A stretch of 32,000 nt of DNA from an uncultured archaeon. GTDB taxonomy: Archaea > Asgardarchaeota > Lokiarchaeia > Sigyniarchaeales > Promethearchaeaceae. A program made the position numbers and the translations under genes. Below, in pieces: positions 1,932-10,746 of the stretch; positions within the stretch are counted from its first letter, which is position 1; the number at the start of each line of letters is the position of its first letter. The stretch covers positions 1-32,000 of the forward strand of contig CAYRPF010000009.1 in NCBI GenBank assembly GCA_964426185.1, written 5' to 3'. The notes below the pieces were generated by a model. It had not been told where the DNA came from and did not search any database. It saw nothing but the letters and a program-made list of their open reading frames with translations.

Positions 1932-3149
1932 ATGGCCATTGAAAAAGAAAAGGAAACAAATCCTACCATCGAAAAAGAGAAAGATTCAAATTATTTGATA
2001 ACCTACACACGACATTTAGAGCGACGTCTTCGTAATTTAGAATCTACTAAATCAAAATTAGAAAGAGAATTGTTGGCGAGTCAACGAGACCTAGATAATC
2101 TGCGGAAAGAACTTGATCGTCTTCGTCAACCTCCTCTAATATCTGCACATGTAACAGATCTATTACCTGATCACCGTGCAATTGTTAAATCAAGTTCAGG
2201 ACCTTCTTTTATTGTGAATATTGCCCCTAAAGTAAATTTTGAAGAAATTCAAGTTAACGATAGAGTTGCATTGAATCAAAGAACATTTTCAATTATGGAA
2301 CGACTTCCAAATGTGGTAGATCCTCAAGTTCAAGTGATGGAAATCACTGAAAAACCAGATGAATATACCTATAATGATATTGGTGGCTTAGAAGAGCAAT
2401 TAATTGAAGTTCGCGAAACAGTTGAAAAACCATTGCTCAATCCTGAATTGTTTGAAAAAGTAGGTGTTATCCCTCCGAAAGGAATTCTCTTATATGGAGT
2501 TCCTGGGACGGGTAAAACAATGATGGCTAAAGCCGTCGCTAATGCAACTCAAGCAACATTTATTCGGATTATTGGAAGTGAACTGGTTCAGAAATTTATT
2601 GGAGAAGGTGCCCGAATGGTTCGAGAATTGTTCGAAATGGCTAGAAATCATTCACCCGCAATAATTTTTATAGATGAATTAGATGCAATAGGTTCAAAAC
2701 GATTACAAGTGGCAACATCTGGGGATCGTGAAGTCCAACGAACTTTGATGCAGTTATTAAGTGAACTTGATGGATTTAACAATCGAGGAGATATTCGAAT
2801 TATTGGTGCAACTAATCGTCCTGATATATTAGATCCTGCCCTTTTACGACCAGGTCGTTTCGATCGATTAATCGAGTTCCCTCCTCCAGATGAAGAAGCA
2901 CGCATTAAAATCTTTCAAATCCATACAAAAAATATGAATTTAGAGAAAAAGGCTCGAAATTTCAAGCAATTTTCTCATTTGACAGAAAACGCTACTGGTG
3001 CAGAAATTAAGGCTATTGTTATGGAAGCGGGAATGTTTGCTATTCGAGAAAACTGTGAAGAAATTAAAGTTTCTCATTTTAAGAAAGCAATTGCCAAAGT
3101 AATGAAAACTTCAAAGAAAACTCATGAAAAATTTGAAATGTATGCCTAA
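1932..3149 (+). CDS. pan: proteasome-activating nucleotidase (AAA+ ATPase)
   Basis: N-terminal coiled coil plus OB domain, Walker A GVPGTGKT, Walker B IIFIDELD, SRH ATNRPDILDPALLRPGRFDR, C-terminal HbYX 'MYA'. Confidence 0.97.
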   Translation: MAIEKEKETNPTIEKEKDSNYLITYTRHLERRLRNLESTKSKLERELLASQRDLDNLRKELDRLRQPPLISAHVTDLLPDHRAIVKSSSGPSFIVNIAPKVNFEEIQVNDRVALNQRTFSIMERLPNVVDPQVQVMEITEKPDEYTYNDIGGLEEQLIEVRETVEKPLLNPELFEKVGVIPPKGILLYGVPGTGKTMMAKAVANATQATFIRIIGSELVQKFIGEGARMVRELFEMARNHSPAIIFIDELDAIGSKRLQVATSGDREVQRTLMQLLSELDGFNNRGDIRIIGATNRPDILDPALLRPGRFDRLIEFPPPDEEARIKIFQIHTKNMNLEKKARNFKQFSHLTENATGAEIKAIVMEAGMFAIRENCEEIKVSHFKKAIAKVMKTSKKTHEKFEMYA

Positions 3150-3390
3150 TATCCCGCTTAAATCTATCCCATAGTTAGTTGTGGTTATTTGTGAGTGATG
3201 TCGAGGTTCCTGCTAACGGCTTAACGTGATGGTAGTGCTTGGTGCCTAACGGCACCATGACTGATTGTGCAATAGTAATTGACTAATTATGATATACTGT
3301 GACATAAGGTCGGCGTTTGGATATAACGGGATGAAAGTTGTTGTGCGAATCAACTATGGGAAAAGAAGAAAAAAATGTTAATCTCTTTTT
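3150..3390 (+). ncRNA. candidate structured ncRNA / repeat element, copy 1
   Basis: GC-richer intergenic segment with no ORF. Hairpin TGGTGCC-TAAC-GGCACCA (3240-3257); 10-bp inverted repeat 3167-3176/3352-3361; conserved blocks shared with 16200-16375(-); followed by a T-tract. Confidence 0.6.
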
Positions 3391-3509
3391 TTTTTACCCT
3401 TTCTAATTTCTTTTCATTTATAATTTATTAATTATATCTTTGATATCATCTTTTTGGCTCTTTTTCAGAAAAATTCTATACTAATCATGTATTATTTTAA
3501 GATGATTCC

Positions 3510-4010
3510 ATGTGGTTAAATCAACGCAGTCGAGAAGAAATCCGCTCTTTTCTAATAGCAGTTTTTGGATTTCAATTTGATGATAAAATTGCTTCAATCT
3601 TGATAGAAGCATTTCCACAAATGAACTTTCAATTTTCAAGAAAAACCAAAAAAATAAAATATATTTTTTTAAACGAGGAAGTTTTTGCAGCATATCGCCC
3701 GCAAACGGGGAAATTTTCATTAGGTTTTGGGGCTGCAGAATATTTAATTGAGCATACTGAAACTCCCAGACTGCGTGCAGTAGTTCAGTCCGATATTCAA
3801 GATTTTATAAAAAGCGGAAAATCTGTGTTCTCTCAACATGTAGTAAATATCGATCCTTTGTTGCACATTGGAGATGAAGTCATAATCGTTAATGAAAATG
3901 ACGAACTACTCGCTTTGGGGAAATTAACATACCCTCCATTTTATATAACTCAAAATGTTAAAGGTAGTTGCATTAAAGTCCGTAAAGGAATTAATGCAAG
4001 ATCGAAGTAA
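3510..4010 (+). CDS. PUA-domain RNA-binding protein (TGT C-terminal/pre-PUA + PUA type)
   Basis: FIKSGKSVFSQHV..IDP.LHIGDEVIIVNENDELLALGK...KVRKG is a typical archaeal PUA signature. Confidence 0.9.
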   Translation: MWLNQRSREEIRSFLIAVFGFQFDDKIASILIEAFPQMNFQFSRKTKKIKYIFLNEEVFAAYRPQTGKFSLGFGAAEYLIEHTETPRLRAVVQSDIQDFIKSGKSVFSQHVVNIDPLLHIGDEVIIVNENDELLALGKLTYPPFYITQNVKGSCIKVRKGINARSK

Positions 4011-4080
4011 ATTTTATTATTTTTCGGAATTTTACTAACTATAGAAAATATTATTCATTCAATTCGGTGACTAAAGAAAT

Positions 4081-4635
4081 ATGGGCAAACTACCCAAATC
4101 CATGCAAAATCGTAACAAACAAATCAAAGAACTACGTGCCAAAGGTAGTTCTCATAGCAAAAGTAAGCATCGAGCACCTCCAGTAGCCCAAAATCGTCAA
4201 ATGCGGCGCAGATTGCAGAAACAAGGCATCGGTGACATGGAACAAATTGAAGCTCGACGCGTAATCATTCAAAAAGATGATGAAGATTTAATCATTGAAA
4301 ATCCTCAGATTATACGAGTCGCTCAACAAGGTATGAATGTTTATCAAGTAATCGGAGAAGCCGAACCTCACCCTTCTGGTAAATATGTGGGAGTCGGTAC
4401 CGATTTTGCTACTGCGGATGAAATTGATGCATCAAATATTACCGCTGAATCAAGAGGTAATTTGCAGGAAGCGATAGCTGAAGAAGAGGAAATTTCATTA
4501 AATGTTGAAATTACTGAGCAAGATATTCAATTAGTTGTGATGCAGACTAATGTGAGTCCAGAAGTTGCCAAACAAACACTTCAAGAAACAAATGGGGATT
4601 TGGCCAAAGCCATTATTAAATTAAAAACCCAATAA
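4081..4635 (+). CDS. nac: archaeal nascent polypeptide-associated complex protein (aNAC)
   Basis: RQMRRRLQKQGI..MEQI.A.RVII...LIIENPQI NAC domain; C-terminal UBA-like ITEQDIQLVVMQTNVS.E.A..L....GDLAKAI. Confidence 0.93.
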   Translation: MGKLPKSMQNRNKQIKELRAKGSSHSKSKHRAPPVAQNRQMRRRLQKQGIGDMEQIEARRVIIQKDDEDLIIENPQIIRVAQQGMNVYQVIGEAEPHPSGKYVGVGTDFATADEIDASNITAESRGNLQEAIAEEEEISLNVEITEQDIQLVVMQTNVSPEVAKQTLQETNGDLAKAIIKLKTQ

Positions 4636-4725
4636 AAAACAAAGTCAAAAATAATCACGGATAATCCCCTAATATCTGTTCCAAAATTATTTTTATTTTT
4701 CACTCATTACCATGATTGAATTATT

Positions 4726-5037
4726 ATGTCAGCTATCGCCTCAAAAAAAGCGGAACAAGAAAAAGGTCCTGAACAAATCCTTTTTACTATGGGTTTTGTA
4801 TTTCTCGGCACAATAGTTGTAATTCTTATTCTTACGTTACTTTTCTCATGGAATTTCTTCTCTACAAACGTCCTGGGACCAATTATTTACTTTTTGCTCC
4901 TCTCGGGGCTTACCTTTGGATTTGGAAGTTTATTAAAAGAGACTTCATATTCTGAAAAAATAATTAAGAATTGGTTTTTTGGATTTTTCGGAATAAGCAT
5001 TATCATAGGAATTGTTTTAGGAGCGTATATGTGGTAA
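4726..5037 (+). CDS. small membrane protein (about 3 TM helices)
   Basis: three hydrophobic stretches in 103 aa. Confidence 0.75.
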   Translation: MSAIASKKAEQEKGPEQILFTMGFVFLGTIVVILILTLLFSWNFFSTNVLGPIIYFLLLSGLTFGFGSLLKETSYSEKIIKNWFFGFFGISIIIGIVLGAYMW

Positions 5038-5245: not shown

Positions 5246-5566
5246 CTATTTACTCTGAAGCATTTGGTTTAATTCTGTAATTTTTTGATCGATTATCGCA
5301 GAAAATTCCCGATTATTGGAATCTTCGACAAATGAAAATGCTTGTAGATATTCTTCTAATGCTTTTTGGTGAAATCCCATTAGTTCCAATAAATTTGCCT
5401 TTTCGGCAATAGATTTAGCGATTCCGAACCGATTTGATAATTGTAGCTTTTTTTTAATAATTCTATTATAAATTTCCAACGCCAAAGTATAATTTCCTTG
5501 ATTTTTTGCTTGTTCTAAATTCTGAGCTAACCTATAAAGCTCAATAATATCTTTCATTTCTTTCAT
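5246..5566 (-). CDS. TPR-like helical repeat protein
   Basis: GNYTLALEIY...GIAKSIAEKA..LE.MG..QKALEEYLQA TPR-like pattern. Confidence 0.75.
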   Translation of the reverse strand: MKEMKDIIELYRLAQNLEQAKNQGNYTLALEIYNRIIKKKLQLSNRFGIAKSIAEKANLLELMGFHQKALEEYLQAFSFVEDSNNREFSAIIDQKITELNQMLQSK

Positions 5567-5712: not shown

Positions 5713-6456
5713 ATGGCTTTGCCTTCTGAATCTGTCCTAAATTTCATAAAAATCCGCGTTGTCTGCAAAGTTGCTCAACCATTGCGGAATTTTACTTGTT
5801 TTTTCTCAACCACCCCAACACAATCTTGGTCTTCTATTCCCATGTTGGCTACTAACGATTTTGAATATGTCGCCTATGTATCCGTTGAAAAATCTGATTC
5901 GCAAATTTATCTCTTTTTCTTATTGGAAACACCTAAAGGAGAACAAATTATTGACAGCAATAACGGAATTTTTTATCAGATTCCCATATATATTTTATCT
6001 TCTGAAAAATCGGTTGAAAAAACAAGCACTCTTTCCTCAAAACAAAGTCAACAGTTTGATATTCCTTCTCCTTTTTCTTCTTCTCCTTCTTCATCCTTAT
6101 CCCCTTTTTTTCCCTCTGGAGTGGCGTCATCGGATGGATCTCTTGCGAACCCAAAACCATTAGTAGAAAACTCAAATAAAAACTTACCATCAATCAGCCA
6201 GTCTATGCCCCATTCTTTAATCTACGTAGAAAACCCATTTAGATATTCAAAGATAACAGATAAAAATTCCATATCTCATAAAATAATCAAATTTCAAGCA
6301 TCTCCTGTTTGTAATCTTACCAATTCCAAAATAAGAAAAAATTCATCACCATCTCAAAAAGAAATTTCCGATTATTCGGTTTGTTCCAATTGTCAAGGGC
6401 GATACCCCAAAATTCTTCATATTTGCCCTTACTGTGGATATGATTTTTCTAAGTAA
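5713..6456 (+). CDS. hypothetical protein: beta-rich N-domain, Ser/Pro linker, C-terminal C4 zinc ribbon
   Basis: CSNC...CPYCG at the C-terminus; low-complexity S/P middle region. Confidence 0.7.
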   Translation: MALPSESVLNFIKIRVVCKVAQPLRNFTCFFSTTPTQSWSSIPMLATNDFEYVAYVSVEKSDSQIYLFFLLETPKGEQIIDSNNGIFYQIPIYILSSEKSVEKTSTLSSKQSQQFDIPSPFSSSPSSSLSPFFPSGVASSDGSLANPKPLVENSNKNLPSISQSMPHSLIYVENPFRYSKITDKNSISHKIIKFQASPVCNLTNSKIRKNSSPSQKEISDYSVCSNCQGRYPKILHICPYCGYDFSK

Positions 6457-6586
6457 CTCTTAACGAAAGCTCGATTCGGGGATTTTTCCAAAAAAGTGAA
6501 ATTAATAGGGTCAGAGTTGTTAATTTAAGTGTAGAATAAAAAATCCTCCTTTGAAAAAAAATGCTCCATTAGGTTGCGAAATATAT

Positions 6587-8470
6587 ATGACAGATAATTA
6601 TGACTTCTTATTTAAATGTGTGATCCTCGGAGATGGCGGCGCTGGAAAAACTGCCATTGTTGTAAGGTTTTCTCAAGGATTTTTCAAGGAGCATTATAAA
6701 ATGACCATCGGTGTTGAATTCGCAGTAAAAAACATCCAAGTCAAAGCCGCTGAAAACCACACCTATAATGTCAAGTTACAAATTTGGGATACAGGTGGTC
6801 AAGATAGGTTCCAATACGTTCGTCCTCTTTACTACAAGGGTGCAATGGGTTGTATTGTTTTATTTGATATCACAAATCGTGAAAGTTTTGAGCATATTCC
6901 ACGGTGGGTTGAAGAAATACGCAAAGAAGCAGGGAAAATACCGACTTTGATTGTTGGGAATAAAAGCGATTTGAGTCTTCAACGAGTAGTTTCCCGGAAA
7001 GAAGCGGAGAAATTTGCCAAGAAATTAGGTTTTCTTTATGCAGAATCGAGTGCTAAAAGTGGAGCAGGAGTGGGAGATATTTTTGAGATTTTGGCTTTAA
7101 TGATGATTGGTGAAGAAGTTCCAAAAGAGTTGATTGAAGAGAACCTCGTTAAACAGTTGGAATCTTCACTAAAGCCTGTAGAGACAAGCACTTCAGTACC
7201 AAAACCATTGGGTATGTCTTCTTCTTCAAAATTAACGAGTCCACAGTTCTTAAATTCCCAAAAACAAGTTATTTCACCAAAAACAAGTGAAAAATTAGCT
7301 GGTGAATCTGGAATTTCTCCAGAGAAATCAACTAAATTTGAACCTTCGACAGTAAATCCTTTCAAAACCAGTCCCTTAGTCAGTTCAAAAGCCAGTCCAT
7401 TTAAATCTTTAAAAAATAAACCCACTCAAGTGGAAGAACCCCAAAAAGTTTCAATCTCGGAGGAAAAACCTATTTTTGAGCCGATAAGAAGAAAAACATT
7501 TCCAACAGCTGCGAGACATGAAAAAAATTCTATGGATGATGAACTATTCATCCCCAAACCACCCCCCAATCCATTTGTTCCCAAAAAACCTATTCCCGCA
7601 AAAAAACATGTCTCAGTATCTGGAACTAAACCAAATTTTCATGAAGAAATAATACATGGAAAATCTACCACAGCAGAAACTTTAGAAAACTCACCTTTTG
7701 TGAAACAAACAAGTGATTCTGGAATTAATACTATTGTTCCTTTTGAAAAACAAGAAGTTAACCCATTCCTTGCCATTAAATCGGAAAAAATTGAACCAGA
7801 AAAACCTCAAGTAGATTCTATAAACTTTTTTATCCCAGACGTTCCACCAAAGCCTTCCTCAAAACCTAAGGAACAACCAGTAAAGCATTCATCACCGACC
7901 TCCTTGCTAAATCAATCTCCAATACCAAAATTATCTTCCATATCAGGTTCAACACCAAAGTCAACATCATTTTCTACCCAATCCAATATTAAGGCGGAAA
8001 ATTCTGCTTCTAATGGTAGTTCTAAGAGTTTCATTCCCTCAACTCCAAAACCATTTACAAATCCCCAATCAATATCAACACATACTGAAGATATATCTTC
8101 AAATAGTGCCATTCCATTTGTCGATTCCAAACCAGCATCGACTACCGTGAAAATCGATAACAAACTCAAACCTTTTATAGTAGGTGAAGAACCTTCTAAA
8201 CAAGAAAATGATGTAAACTTGAATCGTGAAATGATAGAACAAAATCTCCAATTAAAAATACAGACAAAGACCTTTACTGGAACTACAAACCCATTTTTAA
8301 CTCCGAAAATTACTGCAGTCCCACAAGTTCCTAAAAAACATGCTTCAAATCCTTTAATTAAAAAACCAGACAATAGTGAACCCAAACAAGTTGTATGTCC
8401 AAATTGTGGTCATGTTCTTCCCAGTAAATTTAAATTTTGCAATAAATGCGGCGCACAAATTAACAAATGA
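6587..8470 (+). CDS. Rab-like small GTPase with long disordered P/S/K-rich tail and C-terminal zinc ribbon
   Basis: YDFLFK, G1 GDGGAGKT, TIGVEF (RabF1), KLQIWDTGGQ (RabF2/G3), YYKGA (RabF4), LFDIT (RabF5), NKSD, SAK; CPNC..CNKC at the end. ATG 6587 preferred over TTG 6551. Confidence 0.92.
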   Translation: MTDNYDFLFKCVILGDGGAGKTAIVVRFSQGFFKEHYKMTIGVEFAVKNIQVKAAENHTYNVKLQIWDTGGQDRFQYVRPLYYKGAMGCIVLFDITNRESFEHIPRWVEEIRKEAGKIPTLIVGNKSDLSLQRVVSRKEAEKFAKKLGFLYAESSAKSGAGVGDIFEILALMMIGEEVPKELIEENLVKQLESSLKPVETSTSVPKPLGMSSSSKLTSPQFLNSQKQVISPKTSEKLAGESGISPEKSTKFEPSTVNPFKTSPLVSSKASPFKSLKNKPTQVEEPQKVSISEEKPIFEPIRRKTFPTAARHEKNSMDDELFIPKPPPNPFVPKKPIPAKKHVSVSGTKPNFHEEIIHGKSTTAETLENSPFVKQTSDSGINTIVPFEKQEVNPFLAIKSEKIEPEKPQVDSINFFIPDVPPKPSSKPKEQPVKHSSPTSLLNQSPIPKLSSISGSTPKSTSFSTQSNIKAENSASNGSSKSFIPSTPKPFTNPQSISTHTEDISSNSAIPFVDSKPASTTVKIDNKLKPFIVGEEPSKQENDVNLNREMIEQNLQLKIQTKTFTGTTNPFLTPKITAVPQVPKKHASNPLIKKPDNSEPKQVVCPNCGHVLPSKFKFCNKCGAQINK

Positions 8471-8476
8471 GCAATT

Positions 8477-8878
8477 ATGAGTGAATTCAATCTTAGATTA
8501 TCAGAACTCCAAAAGCAAATCCACGAAATAATTATGGAATTTGGGGGATATTGGGATCCTCTGGTTATGTTAGCTGCAGTAGTGGAAGAAGTAGGGGAAT
8601 TAAGTCGTGAAATAACCCACTTTACTGGAATTAAGCCAAAAAAAACCTCAGAATTTCACAAATCTGGTATCTTTCAAAATTCTCTTGTTTCTCATGATTC
8701 ACTTGATTATCATCAATCTATAACCGCGCTATCTGAAGAATTAGGTGATACAATGTTCAGCTTAATCTGTATTGCCAATTACTACAAAATTGATTTGGAG
8801 AAAATCATGCCTCAAATCTTACTGAAATATAAAAATAGAGATAAAAATCGATTTTCTTCACACGAGAAAATTCAATGA
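8477..8878 (+). CDS. MazG-like nucleotide pyrophosphohydrolase (YpjD-type)
   Basis: GGYW.PL.MLAAVVEEVGELSRE...EELGD.MF.LICIAN, KY..RD..R. Confidence 0.9.
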   Translation: MSEFNLRLSELQKQIHEIIMEFGGYWDPLVMLAAVVEEVGELSREITHFTGIKPKKTSEFHKSGIFQNSLVSHDSLDYHQSITALSEELGDTMFSLICIANYYKIDLEKIMPQILLKYKNRDKNRFSSHEKIQ

Positions 8879-9126
8879 TTCCATTCTTTAATAATAAGAT
8901 GGCTGGAACTTTCAAAGATAGCGGGAATTTGATCGATTTCTTCCAGAAACTTTCGATTAATGGTTTCTGTATTATCTGCCGCCAAAATGAACATCAAATC
9001 GTATTCTCCAGTGATATAAGAGATTTGTTGAACCTCAGGAATCTTTTGCAGTTGGGCAATCACTTCCAAACTTTTTCCCACTTCAACTTTAACAAAAGTC
9101 ATAATCTTTACTATGGTTTTTCTCAT
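8872..9126 (-). CDS. stand-alone Lrp/AsnC ligand-binding (RAM) domain protein
   Basis: FVKVEVGK...IPEV....ITGEYDL...IDQIPAI..S.SHLI; no HTH; ATG 9126 overlaps the upstream TGA (ATGA). Confidence 0.85.
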   Translation of the reverse strand: MRKTIVKIMTFVKVEVGKSLEVIAQLQKIPEVQQISYITGEYDLMFILAADNTETINRKFLEEIDQIPAIFESSSHLIIKEWNH

Positions 9127-9365
9127 TTCTGCCACACCTCCAATACAAAATGCGAATGAATCTCTTTTAAACCCGGAATTTTTTCAATATTTTCAAATAT
9201 CGGAACCAAATCTTCGCTGCTGGGTACAGTGATTTCTATTAATAAATCAAAATAACCAGAAATCAATTGGATTTTTCGTATTTCTGAAATATTTTTCAAA
9301 GGGGCTAAAAAGTCCTTTTTATATTGCGGTTTAATTTTCAAAAAGCTGACAACATGAATTTCCAT
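9123..9365 (-). CDS. stand-alone Lrp/AsnC ligand-binding (RAM) domain protein
   Basis: FLKIKP...ISEI....ISGYFDLLIEI...IEKIPGLKEIHSHFVL; no HTH. Confidence 0.85.
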   Translation of the reverse strand: MEIHVVSFLKIKPQYKKDFLAPLKNISEIRKIQLISGYFDLLIEITVPSSEDLVPIFENIEKIPGLKEIHSHFVLEVWQK

Positions 9366-9405
9366 TTTTATTCACTTTTTCCTATTTTTTCATTGAATTT
9401 TGCTA

Positions 9406-10746
9406 TTATTTCTTGTTAATTGTAGGTAAGGATCGATCTACACTCTGATTTAAAACTAAAAGGATTTTATAATGTTTTAATCCAGGCAGTTTTGCAATTC
9501 TTTCTTGAATAACTGAGTTCATACTTTTAGAAGACAGAAATTGAAATTCAGCCATTACATCAAATTCTCCTACCAAAGAACGAACTTCTCGGGCAGATTT
9601 GATGAGGTATAACTTCTTCATAACCTTTATGTGGGAGCGAGGTTCTATTTTCAAGAAGATATAGGCATGTATCTGGGCTTGAGTTTCACTAACAAACTTC
9701 GTCATAATTGAGATTACTAGCAAAAATATAATTATATACAACCATGAATAAGGAAAATGCTCATCTAGAAGAGTAACTCCCAGTATAATGTTAATTATTG
9801 GCTCGAGAAGTTGCAACACACCTACCCATAGATCGAATGATGCTTCTTTAGGCCAAGAAGTGGATAATGAATAATACAATAGATAAGGGCTAATGGTCAA
9901 ACCCAAAATTAAAAACATTCCATTTAGCGAAAATGTAATATCACCAATATTTGGTAATTCCAAGAAGAATTGTGAAATTTCATTTTGAATCAATTGATTT
10001 GTTATCAAAAATTTCGCCACTATCATTAAAGGGATGTAAGATATTACACAAAATAGGCTAAGTATGGCTAATTTCAAGAGAACACGAATTAATTTATAGT
10101 TTGGATTAGCATTTATAATATCAATTTCGTTTGCAGATATGCGATCCATACCGCTAGAAATTACGAAAAAGGTCAAAGCTAAACCATAAGCAATTATTAA
10201 GAGTAGAGATTGCCAAGTTAATTGTGAAACCGAGCCGATTGGTTGTGAATTAATTCCCATGATAACAGCAGCCGCTATCAAAGTAACTAAATAAATAAAC
10301 TTGAAAGCCGACATTTCTTCCTTTCCCATCCCCCATTTAATCGCTGCTATAAAAATCAAACTTAGAATAACTCCAATAGCGGTAGTTATGGCTCCAATAG
10401 TTTTTAAACAATAAAAAAACAGCAGAGTCATTAGATTTAATCCTAATATAGATATAATTAGTAAATATGACCATTGGGGGATATTGAAAAACTCTCGATT
10501 TTTTGAGGTGAAGTATTTCACAATTTGAAAAAATTCAATTTTAGACGGATTATTTTTCTTGAAATAGCCAATTATCAATATTACAGTTGAAATAAGGAGT
10601 AATGTTATTGCCATAGCTAAAAATCGAGTAAATATTATTATAAATGTAGAATATGTTTCAAATAATTGATGAGCTGGATAAGGAATTAACCCCCATAAGA
10701 TATTGCAAGTGCTCAATAGTAATATTTTCCACGTTAATTCCTTCAT
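9406..10746 (-). CDS. DMT/EamA-family transporter fused to C-terminal RAM domain
   Basis: ~10 TM; ILWG, TRF, LLEPI..I.LG..LLDE EamA motifs; tail AYIFLKIEP...SLVGEFDVMAE...IAKLPGL is RAM-like. Confidence 0.8.
   Translation of the reverse strand: MKELTWKILLLSTCNILWGLIPYPAHQLFETYSTFIIIFTRFLAMAITLLLISTVILIIGYFKKNNPSKIEFFQIVKYFTSKNREFFNIPQWSYLLIISILGLNLMTLLFFYCLKTIGAITTAIGVILSLIFIAAIKWGMGKEEMSAFKFIYLVTLIAAAVIMGINSQPIGSVSQLTWQSLLLIIAYGLALTFFVISSGMDRISANEIDIINANPNYKLIRVLLKLAILSLFCVISYIPLMIVAKFLITNQLIQNEISQFFLELPNIGDITFSLNGMFLILGLTISPYLLYYSLSTSWPKEASFDLWVGVLQLLEPIINIILGVTLLDEHFPYSWLYIIIFLLVISIMTKFVSETQAQIHAYIFLKIEPRSHIKVMKKLYLIKSAREVRSLVGEFDVMAEFQFLSSKSMNSVIQERIAKLPGLKHYKILLVLNQSVDRSLPTINKK

Follow-up and report, generated by a model that had tools for sequence, protein, structure and literature searches.

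The stretch of DNA analysed here, called the window, comprises the first 32,000 nucleotides of contig CAYRPF010000009.1 (assembly GCA_964426185.1) from an uncultured archaeon of the Promethearchaeaceae. We here concentrate on one gene of its forward strand (6587–8470), which encodes a protein of 627 amino acids composed of a Rab-like GTPase domain, a long disordered tail and a C-terminal zinc ribbon. The tail bears Asn-Pro-Phe (NPF) motifs that appear to be kept by selection, and the gene travels with a second one whose product has an NPF and a zinc ribbon of its own. The source names of the closest relatives, Candidatus Harpocratesius repetitus, Promethearchaeum syntrophicum and Candidatus Lokiarchaeum ossiferum, confirm the Asgard origin of the DNA; the genome of Ca. 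H. repetitus belongs to the same genus.

The reading frame is open from a TTG at 6551 to 8470 on the forward strand. Translation probably begins at the ATG at 6587, because all orthologues begin with M-x-[DE]-x-YD-[FY]-LFK; a database copy is annotated from the TTG and thereby reaches 639 amino acids. The translation and 84 relatives of like architecture agree on the three-part build of the protein.

The G domain occupies residues 1–175 (6587–7111). Pfam Ras (PF00071) matches residues 10–170 with an E value of 1.3e-52 and 178.1 bits (cut-off 21.6), and TIGR00231 scores 92.5 bits (cut-off 42.5). The translation displays the P-loop GDGGAGKT, T40 of switch I, WDTGGQ with Q72 in switch II, GNKSD and SAK. 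The nucleotide-binding motifs and the catalytic glutamine of switch II are invariant in 39 relatives. Inspection by eye further reveals near matches to the RabF motifs (IGVEF, KLQIW, RFQYVR, YYKGA and IVLFDIT). The best relatives of known structure are a Thorarchaeota Rab (7EZB, 3e-42) and then Rab43, Rab30, Rab1, Rab8 and Rab11 (~1e-41). As judged by its motif content, the G domain is Rab-like and catalytically complete.

AlphaFold2, supplied with an alignment of 39 sequences, predicts the G domain with confidence (predicted local distance difference test, pLDDT, ~80–95). A helical extension at residues 180–195 (7124–7171) follows the conserved L-A-L-M-M-I-G-E-E-V-P and is supported by family conservation. 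Residues 199–592 (7181–8362), a tail rich in S, P, K and T, are mostly predicted with pLDDT <50; exempt is a short helix at residues 544–553 (8216–8245), which coincides in the alignment with a genus-level island of conservation, K-R-E-h-I-E-x-N-L. The aromatic residues of the tail are of one kind: 21 Phe, ten of them in the context xPF, without any Trp or Tyr. Cys is also absent.

The protein ends in a zinc ribbon of the form C-x2-C-x10-C-x2-C (residues 600–627, 8384–8467). Pfam Zn_Ribbon_1 (PF13240) matches residues 604–624 with 27.6 bits (cut-off 25), and AlphaFold2 models the ribbon with a pLDDT of ~90 and strands at 601–603 and 610–612; metal binding is predicted. The very C-terminus reads ...C-N-K-C-G-A-Q-I-N-K and displays none of the prenylation motifs CC, CXC, CCXX or CAAX; its cysteines are presumably occupied by the metal. 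Pfam, the structural model and the translation thus bear out an earlier note on this DNA, which had described a Rab-type G domain followed by some 420 disordered residues (about 400 in the present analysis) and a terminal zinc ribbon in place of a prenylation motif.

The ribbon is kept in 81 of the 84 relatives, the three exceptions including both records labelled "partial", and the x10 spacing is identical in all 81. It exposes a conserved face, [FYW]-K-[FY]-C-[NT]-K-C-G. Roughly one relative in two has a basic stretch ahead of the ribbon, whereas some third of them lack it altogether; the family has thus not conserved a general polyanion-binding tail. In the PDB, the only sequence matches of the ribbon are weak ones to small archaeal or bacterial ribosome-associated zinc-ribbon proteins. 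The first is an HVO_2753-like protein (E 6e-4), and after it come bL32, eL40 and a "Zn-ribbon RNA-binding protein involved in translation".

C-terminal zinc ribbons are a common appended module in this archaeon. In a crude set of 2,852 open reading frames (ORFs) covering the whole genome, 37 end in CxxC-x6–16-CxxC within their last 45 residues, many of them with a hydrophobic residue before C-x-x-C-G. A second GTPase of the Ras family (contig C2:16107–16700; 197 amino acids; Pfam Ras 3.4e-43) has a CxxC...CxxC ribbon straight after its G domain (21.8 bits, cut-off 25) and lacks a long tail; a zinc ribbon can thus be found on small GTPases whether or not they have such a tail. Two neighbouring genes elsewhere (contig C8:26783–29110) encode proteins of 310 and 419 amino acids that both end in a zinc ribbon, the only domain that Pfam finds in the pair; in the second of them a disordered, P-rich segment and a single NPF are present as well.

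We now turn to the motifs of the tail. The earlier note had placed NPF at 7355, 7568, 7760 and 8288, and all four are exactly there. Seven genus-level sequences reveal their different histories. At the first (residues 257–259, 7355–7363) NP is kept in four of the seven sequences. The second (residues 328–330, 7568–7576) lies within F-I-P-K-P-P-P-N-P-F (7547–7576) and aligns to NPH or KP[LS] in the relatives. The third (residues 392–394, 7760–7768), here NPFL, is NPF in five and QPF in one of the seven. The fourth (residues 568–570, 8288–8296), embedded in K-T-F-T-G-T-T-N-P-F-L-T-P-K, is NPF in all of them. The proline motif F-F-I-P-D-V-P-P-K-P (residues 414–423, 7826–7855) is represented in relatives by NPF or F-A-P-x-V-P-K-K-P. 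The variants listed in the earlier note are likewise all present: six further xPF (SPF twice, VPF, KPF twice and IPF), NPL, and the motifs FIPKPPP and FIPDVPPKP.

The number of these motifs is far from accidental. Residues 186–600 contain four NPF versus 0.16 expected, and none of 20,000 composition-preserving shuffles reaches four, which answers the earlier note's call for such a comparison. The broader xPF is found ten times versus 2.7 expected (P ~1.5e-4, shuffles). No tandem repeats underlie the motifs in the DNA, and direct repeats are short and at chance level; a recent repeat expansion is thereby ruled out as the source of the NPFs. The Phe residues of the tail are also spaced more evenly than in shuffles (coefficient of variation 0.60 versus 0.91, P 0.018). 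Of 11 tails tested from the near clade or the sister clade, nine share this even spacing (0.52–0.66), whereas the four remotest members of the family do not, a statistic that is not independent across tails because the sequences are related.

A search for relatives, restricted to proteins of 344–1098 amino acids and E ≤ 1e-40, yielded the 84 proteins mentioned. They carry the labels Lokiarchaeia, Hel-, Hod- and Sigynarchaeia, and include orthologues from cultured species, P. syntrophicum MK-D1 (517 amino acids, with the terminal ribbon) and L. ossiferum (588 amino acids). If the orthogroup is delimited by a G domain at least 50% identical, a tail of 150–470 residues, the C-x2-C-x10-C-x2-C end and an adjoining gene for a beta-sandwich/zinc-ribbon protein, the GTPase of the window falls within it. 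The database annotation of the group is just "GTP-binding protein".

All 84 tails together contain 85 NPF versus 6.5 expected. The motif is present in 28 of the 34 closest proteins, and the NPF-bearing subclade comprises Harpocratesius, Promethearchaeum and Lokiarchaeum, with one to seven copies per tail. In a tree of the G domains the NPF-bearing proteins form one clade. The distant half of the family has N-poor, P-rich tails in which NPF is nearly absent and FIPF, FVPF and IPF[LS] are enriched. Conservation in orthologue tails, which the earlier note had proposed to examine, is thus real, with four to seven copies per genus-level orthologue and one invariant site, and is confined to one subclade.

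Within the genus the tails are only 0.24 identical, as compared to 0.86 for the G domains, yet the NPF count is maintained (seven sequences). Their alignment has 12 NPF sites: residue 568 is invariant, one site is occupied in five of the seven, and the others have been gained or lost. Functional arrays of linear motifs usually evolve in this way, with the count kept and the sites turning over. From the alignments, the NPFs behave like a selected, multivalent array of short linear motifs. NPF occurs in 78 distinct contexts, and in 62 of these it is followed by L, I, F, M or V, which defines the consensus N-P-F-[LIFMV]. A peculiar metagenomic relative, P0066 (617 amino acids), displays four N-P-F-[MV]-[PS]-K units at an exact period of 22 residues, followed by the family ribbon; it begins with a TPR region, to which a G domain without P-loop is joined. 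This protein is either a true rearranged variant or a chimera of assembly or gene calling.

Which protein could read these motifs? NPF is the canonical ligand of EH domains, and the earlier note had accordingly thought of EH-like EF-hand pairs and SHD1 as readers of NPF and of SH3 domains as readers of the PxxP motifs. These proposals fared badly. The genome is 92% complete, and the domain absences reported here rest on sequence profiles. EH (PF12763) has no match in it at E ≤ 1, a profile result that a very divergent fold could escape. No EH match over the cut-off was seen in 40 related genomes either, the best one reaching 20.8 bits in a single genome and within a frame interrupted by a stop codon. 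With the Pfam profiles for SHD1, the alpha-adaptin appendage (Alpha_adaptinC2) and SH3_1, none was found over the cut-off in the archaeon's own genome, and EF-hand_7 gave a single sub-threshold match of 15 bits. The genome does encode a profilin-like ORF (sub-threshold, 23.3 bits) and a Vps4-type MIT domain (43 bits). By their profiles these are possible candidates for reading the proline motifs; the similarity of I-P-D-V-P-P-K-P to proline motifs of the MIM2 type may serve as a lead only.

Nor does NPF pervade the proteome. In the 2,852 ORFs the GTPase is the sole protein with four NPF and the most NPF-enriched one. All ORFs together contain 150 NPF versus 119 expected; disordered-like segments outside the GTPase and its partner contain four versus 1.2 expected, three of the four in one protein. 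The latter (contig C133:1559–3706) has 715 amino acids, an N-terminal zinc finger, a Q/N-rich tail with the three NPF and a weak PH/GRAM-like match (bPH_3, 22.6 bits, cut-off 23). Of the 41 relatives, 37 have this protein, which may correspond to a family of the Asgard "Znr-CC-PH" type named in PMC10936438; the orthologue within the genus, however, has none of the three NPF. On these counts, and in view of that orthologue, we reject an NPF network spanning the proteome.

Immediately upstream of the GTPase lies the partner gene (5713–6456, forward strand; 247 amino acids). Neither Pfam nor NCBIfam finds a domain in its product. AlphaFold2 predicts an Ig/CBM-like beta-sandwich at residues 11–91 (pLDDT 73–90) and a disordered tail thereafter, which contains an NPF at residues 174–176 (6232–6240) and a conserved Phe 194. 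Its C-terminal ribbon (C224–C241, 6382–6435) is of a conserved subtype, W-x-[IT]-C-P-[IY]-C-G, unlike that of the GTPase. Fold searches with the N-terminal domain returned generic Ig/FN3/CBM-like sandwiches only, from which no function can be read: the best Foldseek E value was 1.8e-3, and the VIA-align Z scores of up to 9.1 are within the tool's stated background range.

The partner is conserved. A profile search finds homologues in 38 of 41 related genomes, and in at least 22 of the 41, from two taxonomic families, the gene is within ~2 kb of that of the GTPase. The pair is arranged in tandem in the window's family and convergently in the sister family. At the aligned position the partner's NPF is present in seven of eight sequences from four NPF-bearing genera, the eighth having NPY. 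In the sister family, where the GTPase tails lack NPF, this position reads QPK, KPI or KPM.

Divergent from the partner gene is a small gene on the reverse strand (5246–5566; 106 amino acids). Its product is best called TPR-like, since the TPR profiles score below the curated Pfam cut-offs (TPR_12 18.2 bits versus 30.1; TPR_2 18.0 versus 27). NCBIfam has no match for it. A profile of the protein weakly hits the peptide-binding TPRs of Pins and OGT in the PDB with E ~1e-3, and some of its relatives carry a precomputed PF13424. The family is tiny, 35 clusters in 5.8 billion proteins, and strong homologues occur only in four NPF-bearing genera (g1, g5, g6 and g7). In about ten cases the longest contig of a cluster has the same length as that of a near-clade GTPase, which suggests that the two genes share contigs, and at another metagenomic locus the gene is found in the same position. 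Prediction of a complex between the TPR-like protein and tail residues 540–600 gave a score of 0.00 in both runs, a result that counts neither way.

The remaining neighbours are of a different kind. A MazG-family pyrophosphohydrolase gene (8477–8878, forward strand; Pfam MazG 1e-12) begins 7 nucleotides past the GTPase stop and is probably co-transcribed with it. It adjoins the GTPase in the same-family loci examined (g1, g5 and g6) and is one to three genes away in g7 and in the sister family. Downstream of MazG (8872–10746, reverse strand) there are three ORFs, two of them small and consisting of an AsnC/RAM domain alone, the third an EamA-type transporter with a RAM-like C-terminal end; MazG is followed by these three also in Ca. 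H. repetitus, in L. ossiferum and on one metagenomic contig. Further upstream (1932–5037) lies a block kept in four genera of the family: the proteasome ATPase PAN, a PUA-domain protein, NAC and a membrane protein of 103 amino acids. The PAN/PUA/NAC neighbours are housekeeping genes and are not maintained next to the GTPase in the sister family.

How may all this work together? The reading towards which we lean, and which we consider a little short of probable, is that of a GTP switch on a leash, the NPF-hydrophobic motifs of the tail being multivalent docking sites for a reader other than an EH protein. The ribbon would dock or localise the protein at its C-terminus, and the G domain would explore a radius set by the length of the tail. 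Its NPF-hydrophobic motifs, together with those of the form F-[IA]-P-x-x-P-P-K-P, would recruit the reader multivalently. The partner, by virtue of an NPF and a ribbon of its own, would arrive at the same site or on the same reader, so that GTPase and partner would form a single functional module. Of the proteins at hand, the TPR-like one would be the best candidate for a reader or adaptor; that it actually is the reader we regard as rather unlikely. A recruitment module of three genes, in which a dedicated non-EH reader, the TPR-like protein being the first candidate, recognises both the NPF array and the partner's NPF, is correspondingly a doubtful proposition. If true, it would mean that a eukaryote-style network of switch, multivalent linear motif and reader arose in archaea, independently of EH domains or before them.

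Several observations weigh against this picture. The wider family functions without NPF, its distant members using FIPF, FVPF and IPF instead, and NPF is therefore dispensable for what the family has in common. Evenly spaced Phe residues suit a sticker-and-spacer tail equally well. The weak sequence matches of the ribbon are to ribosome-bound zinc-ribbon proteins, and its docking role is an inference. In genus g4 the GTPase tail has at least two NPF, yet the partner has none, and the TPR-like gene was not found in this genus, the genome of which is 85% complete. Finally, the NPFs of both proteins and the TPR-like gene may go back to a single ancestral event in one clade; since the positives form one clade, their co-occurrence amounts to about one observation.

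The main rival is precisely such a sticker-and-spacer tail. In this case the evenly distributed Phe, mostly as Pro-Phe or Phe-x-Pro, would mediate weak multivalent self-association or binding to a hydrophobic surface, the switch would thereby be concentrated in a condensate or mesh, and NPF would be one preferred kind of sticker in need of no dedicated reader. That all 21 tail aromatics are Phe, that the same trend is seen in nine of the 11 near or sister tails, and that FIPF, FVPF and IPF replace NPF in distant members fits this idea. The strictness of N-P-F, its one invariant site and the positionally conserved NPF of the partner, however, point to stereospecific recognition, and the spacing statistic stems from related sequences. 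On balance we hold this explanation to be unlikely, if worth keeping in mind. The opposite extreme, a freely drifting entropic spacer in which the NPF excess is a lineage-specific by-product of composition and descent, could invoke the fast evolution of the tail (24% identity in the genus) and the lack of NPF in most of the family. It is disfavoured by the shuffles, by the four to seven NPF kept across the genus despite gains and losses at 12 sites, and by the partner's NPF, held at one aligned position over four genera; we therefore judge it very unlikely.

Two further explanations concern the binding partners. The ribbon might dock on RNA, the ribosome or other nucleic acid, in which case the GTPase, held on its tether, would regulate translation or the handling of proteins and not membranes. 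The ribosome-associated zinc ribbons among its PDB matches and the conserved block with PAN, the PUA protein and NAC are compatible with this view. The matches, however, are weak ones that stem from the CxxC pairs, the neighbours are housekeeping genes that the sister family does not keep there, and the basic stretch before the ribbon exists in only about half of the relatives, which leaves the idea quite improbable. To the view that the NPFs are ligands of EH-like (EF-hand pair) or SHD1-like domains and the PxxP motifs those of SH3 domains, so that the system would be a direct forerunner of eukaryotic endocytic networks, we give hardly any credence. The enriched, conserved and multivalent NPF in a disordered tail on a Rab-like GTPase speaks for it. 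Against it stand the lack of EH over the cut-off in 41 genomes and of SHD1, alpha-adaptin appendage and SH3_1 in the archaeon's own, the confinement of NPF to one subclade, and a separate consensus with its hydrophobic +1 residue and K/P-rich flanks. Since NPF is a trait of one subclade and not of the whole family, a direct ancestral link to eukaryotic NPF–EH trafficking is unlikely, and convergence or a different reader is more plausible. Of the earlier note's idea of a GTPase–scaffold fusion that may prefigure trafficking networks, the scaffold survives; the EH/SH3 ancestry does not, and the network is a narrow one.

Eukaryotic Rabs end in a hypervariable region of about 30–40 residues with prenylated cysteines (CC, CXC or CAAX). 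Rab1, Rab8, Rab11, Rab30 and Rab43 have a similar G domain and share with the present protein a common logic: G domain, flexible region, terminal targeting element. The flexible region here, in contrast, is ten times longer, bears linear motifs and has a zinc-binding fold at its end, and the ribbon stands where the prenylated end of the hypervariable region would be. From the generic zinc ribbons of archaeal proteins (PF13240, PF12773 and PF13248), with which it shares the four Cys in two CxxC knuckles, that of the GTPase family differs by its own conserved face and the fixed x10 spacing.

The closest known system comprises the archaeal Rab-like GTPases (7EZB of Tran et al. 2024, PMC10933270; the Lokiarchaeum set of Surkont & Pereira-Leal 2016, PMC4915359), which belong to the same G-domain family; the protein of the window has the catalytic Gln, all nucleotide-binding motifs and, by eye, near matches to the RabF motifs. 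According to both papers, archaeal Rab-like proteins have neither a C-terminal extension nor terminal cysteines nor a signal for membrane association (PMC4915359, PMC10933270), and one of these two papers states that none of the small GTPases of MK-D1 has terminal cysteines. The present family, to which proteins of MK-D1 and L. ossiferum belong, instead combines a four-cysteine ribbon with a tail that is about 400 residues long, and thus contradicts the generalisation that archaeal Rab-like proteins are devoid of a C-terminal extension (PMC4915359, PMC10933270). The most Rab-like paralogue is the one with a very long tail, conserved docking motifs, a conserved ribbon and a travelling partner gene. 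In the literature searched, with its limited coverage of subscription journals, no description of the tail, ribbon, motifs or partner gene was found. The family bears on how Asgard Rab-like GTPases, which lack prenylation sites, are positioned in the cell. The orthologues in both cultured Asgard species make peptides, domains and candidate partners accessible to experiment.

A further comparison is that with the eukaryotic NPF adaptors epsin, Rab11-FIP2 and Rabenosyn-5, the readers of which are Eps15 and EHD1–4. They, too, have several NPFs in disordered regions, linked to a Rab-type switch and subject to turnover. If a reader of the archaeal NPFs were found, this would show that archaea already surround small GTPases with scaffolds of multivalent linear motifs, as is characteristic of trafficking in eukaryotes. 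The two systems differ in several ways. In the archaeal system the motifs reside on the GTPase itself and not on an effector, they follow the consensus N-P-F-hydrophobic, they are restricted to one archaeal subclade, and no EH domain is detected in the 41 genomes. The resemblance is one of functional analogy, not of homology.

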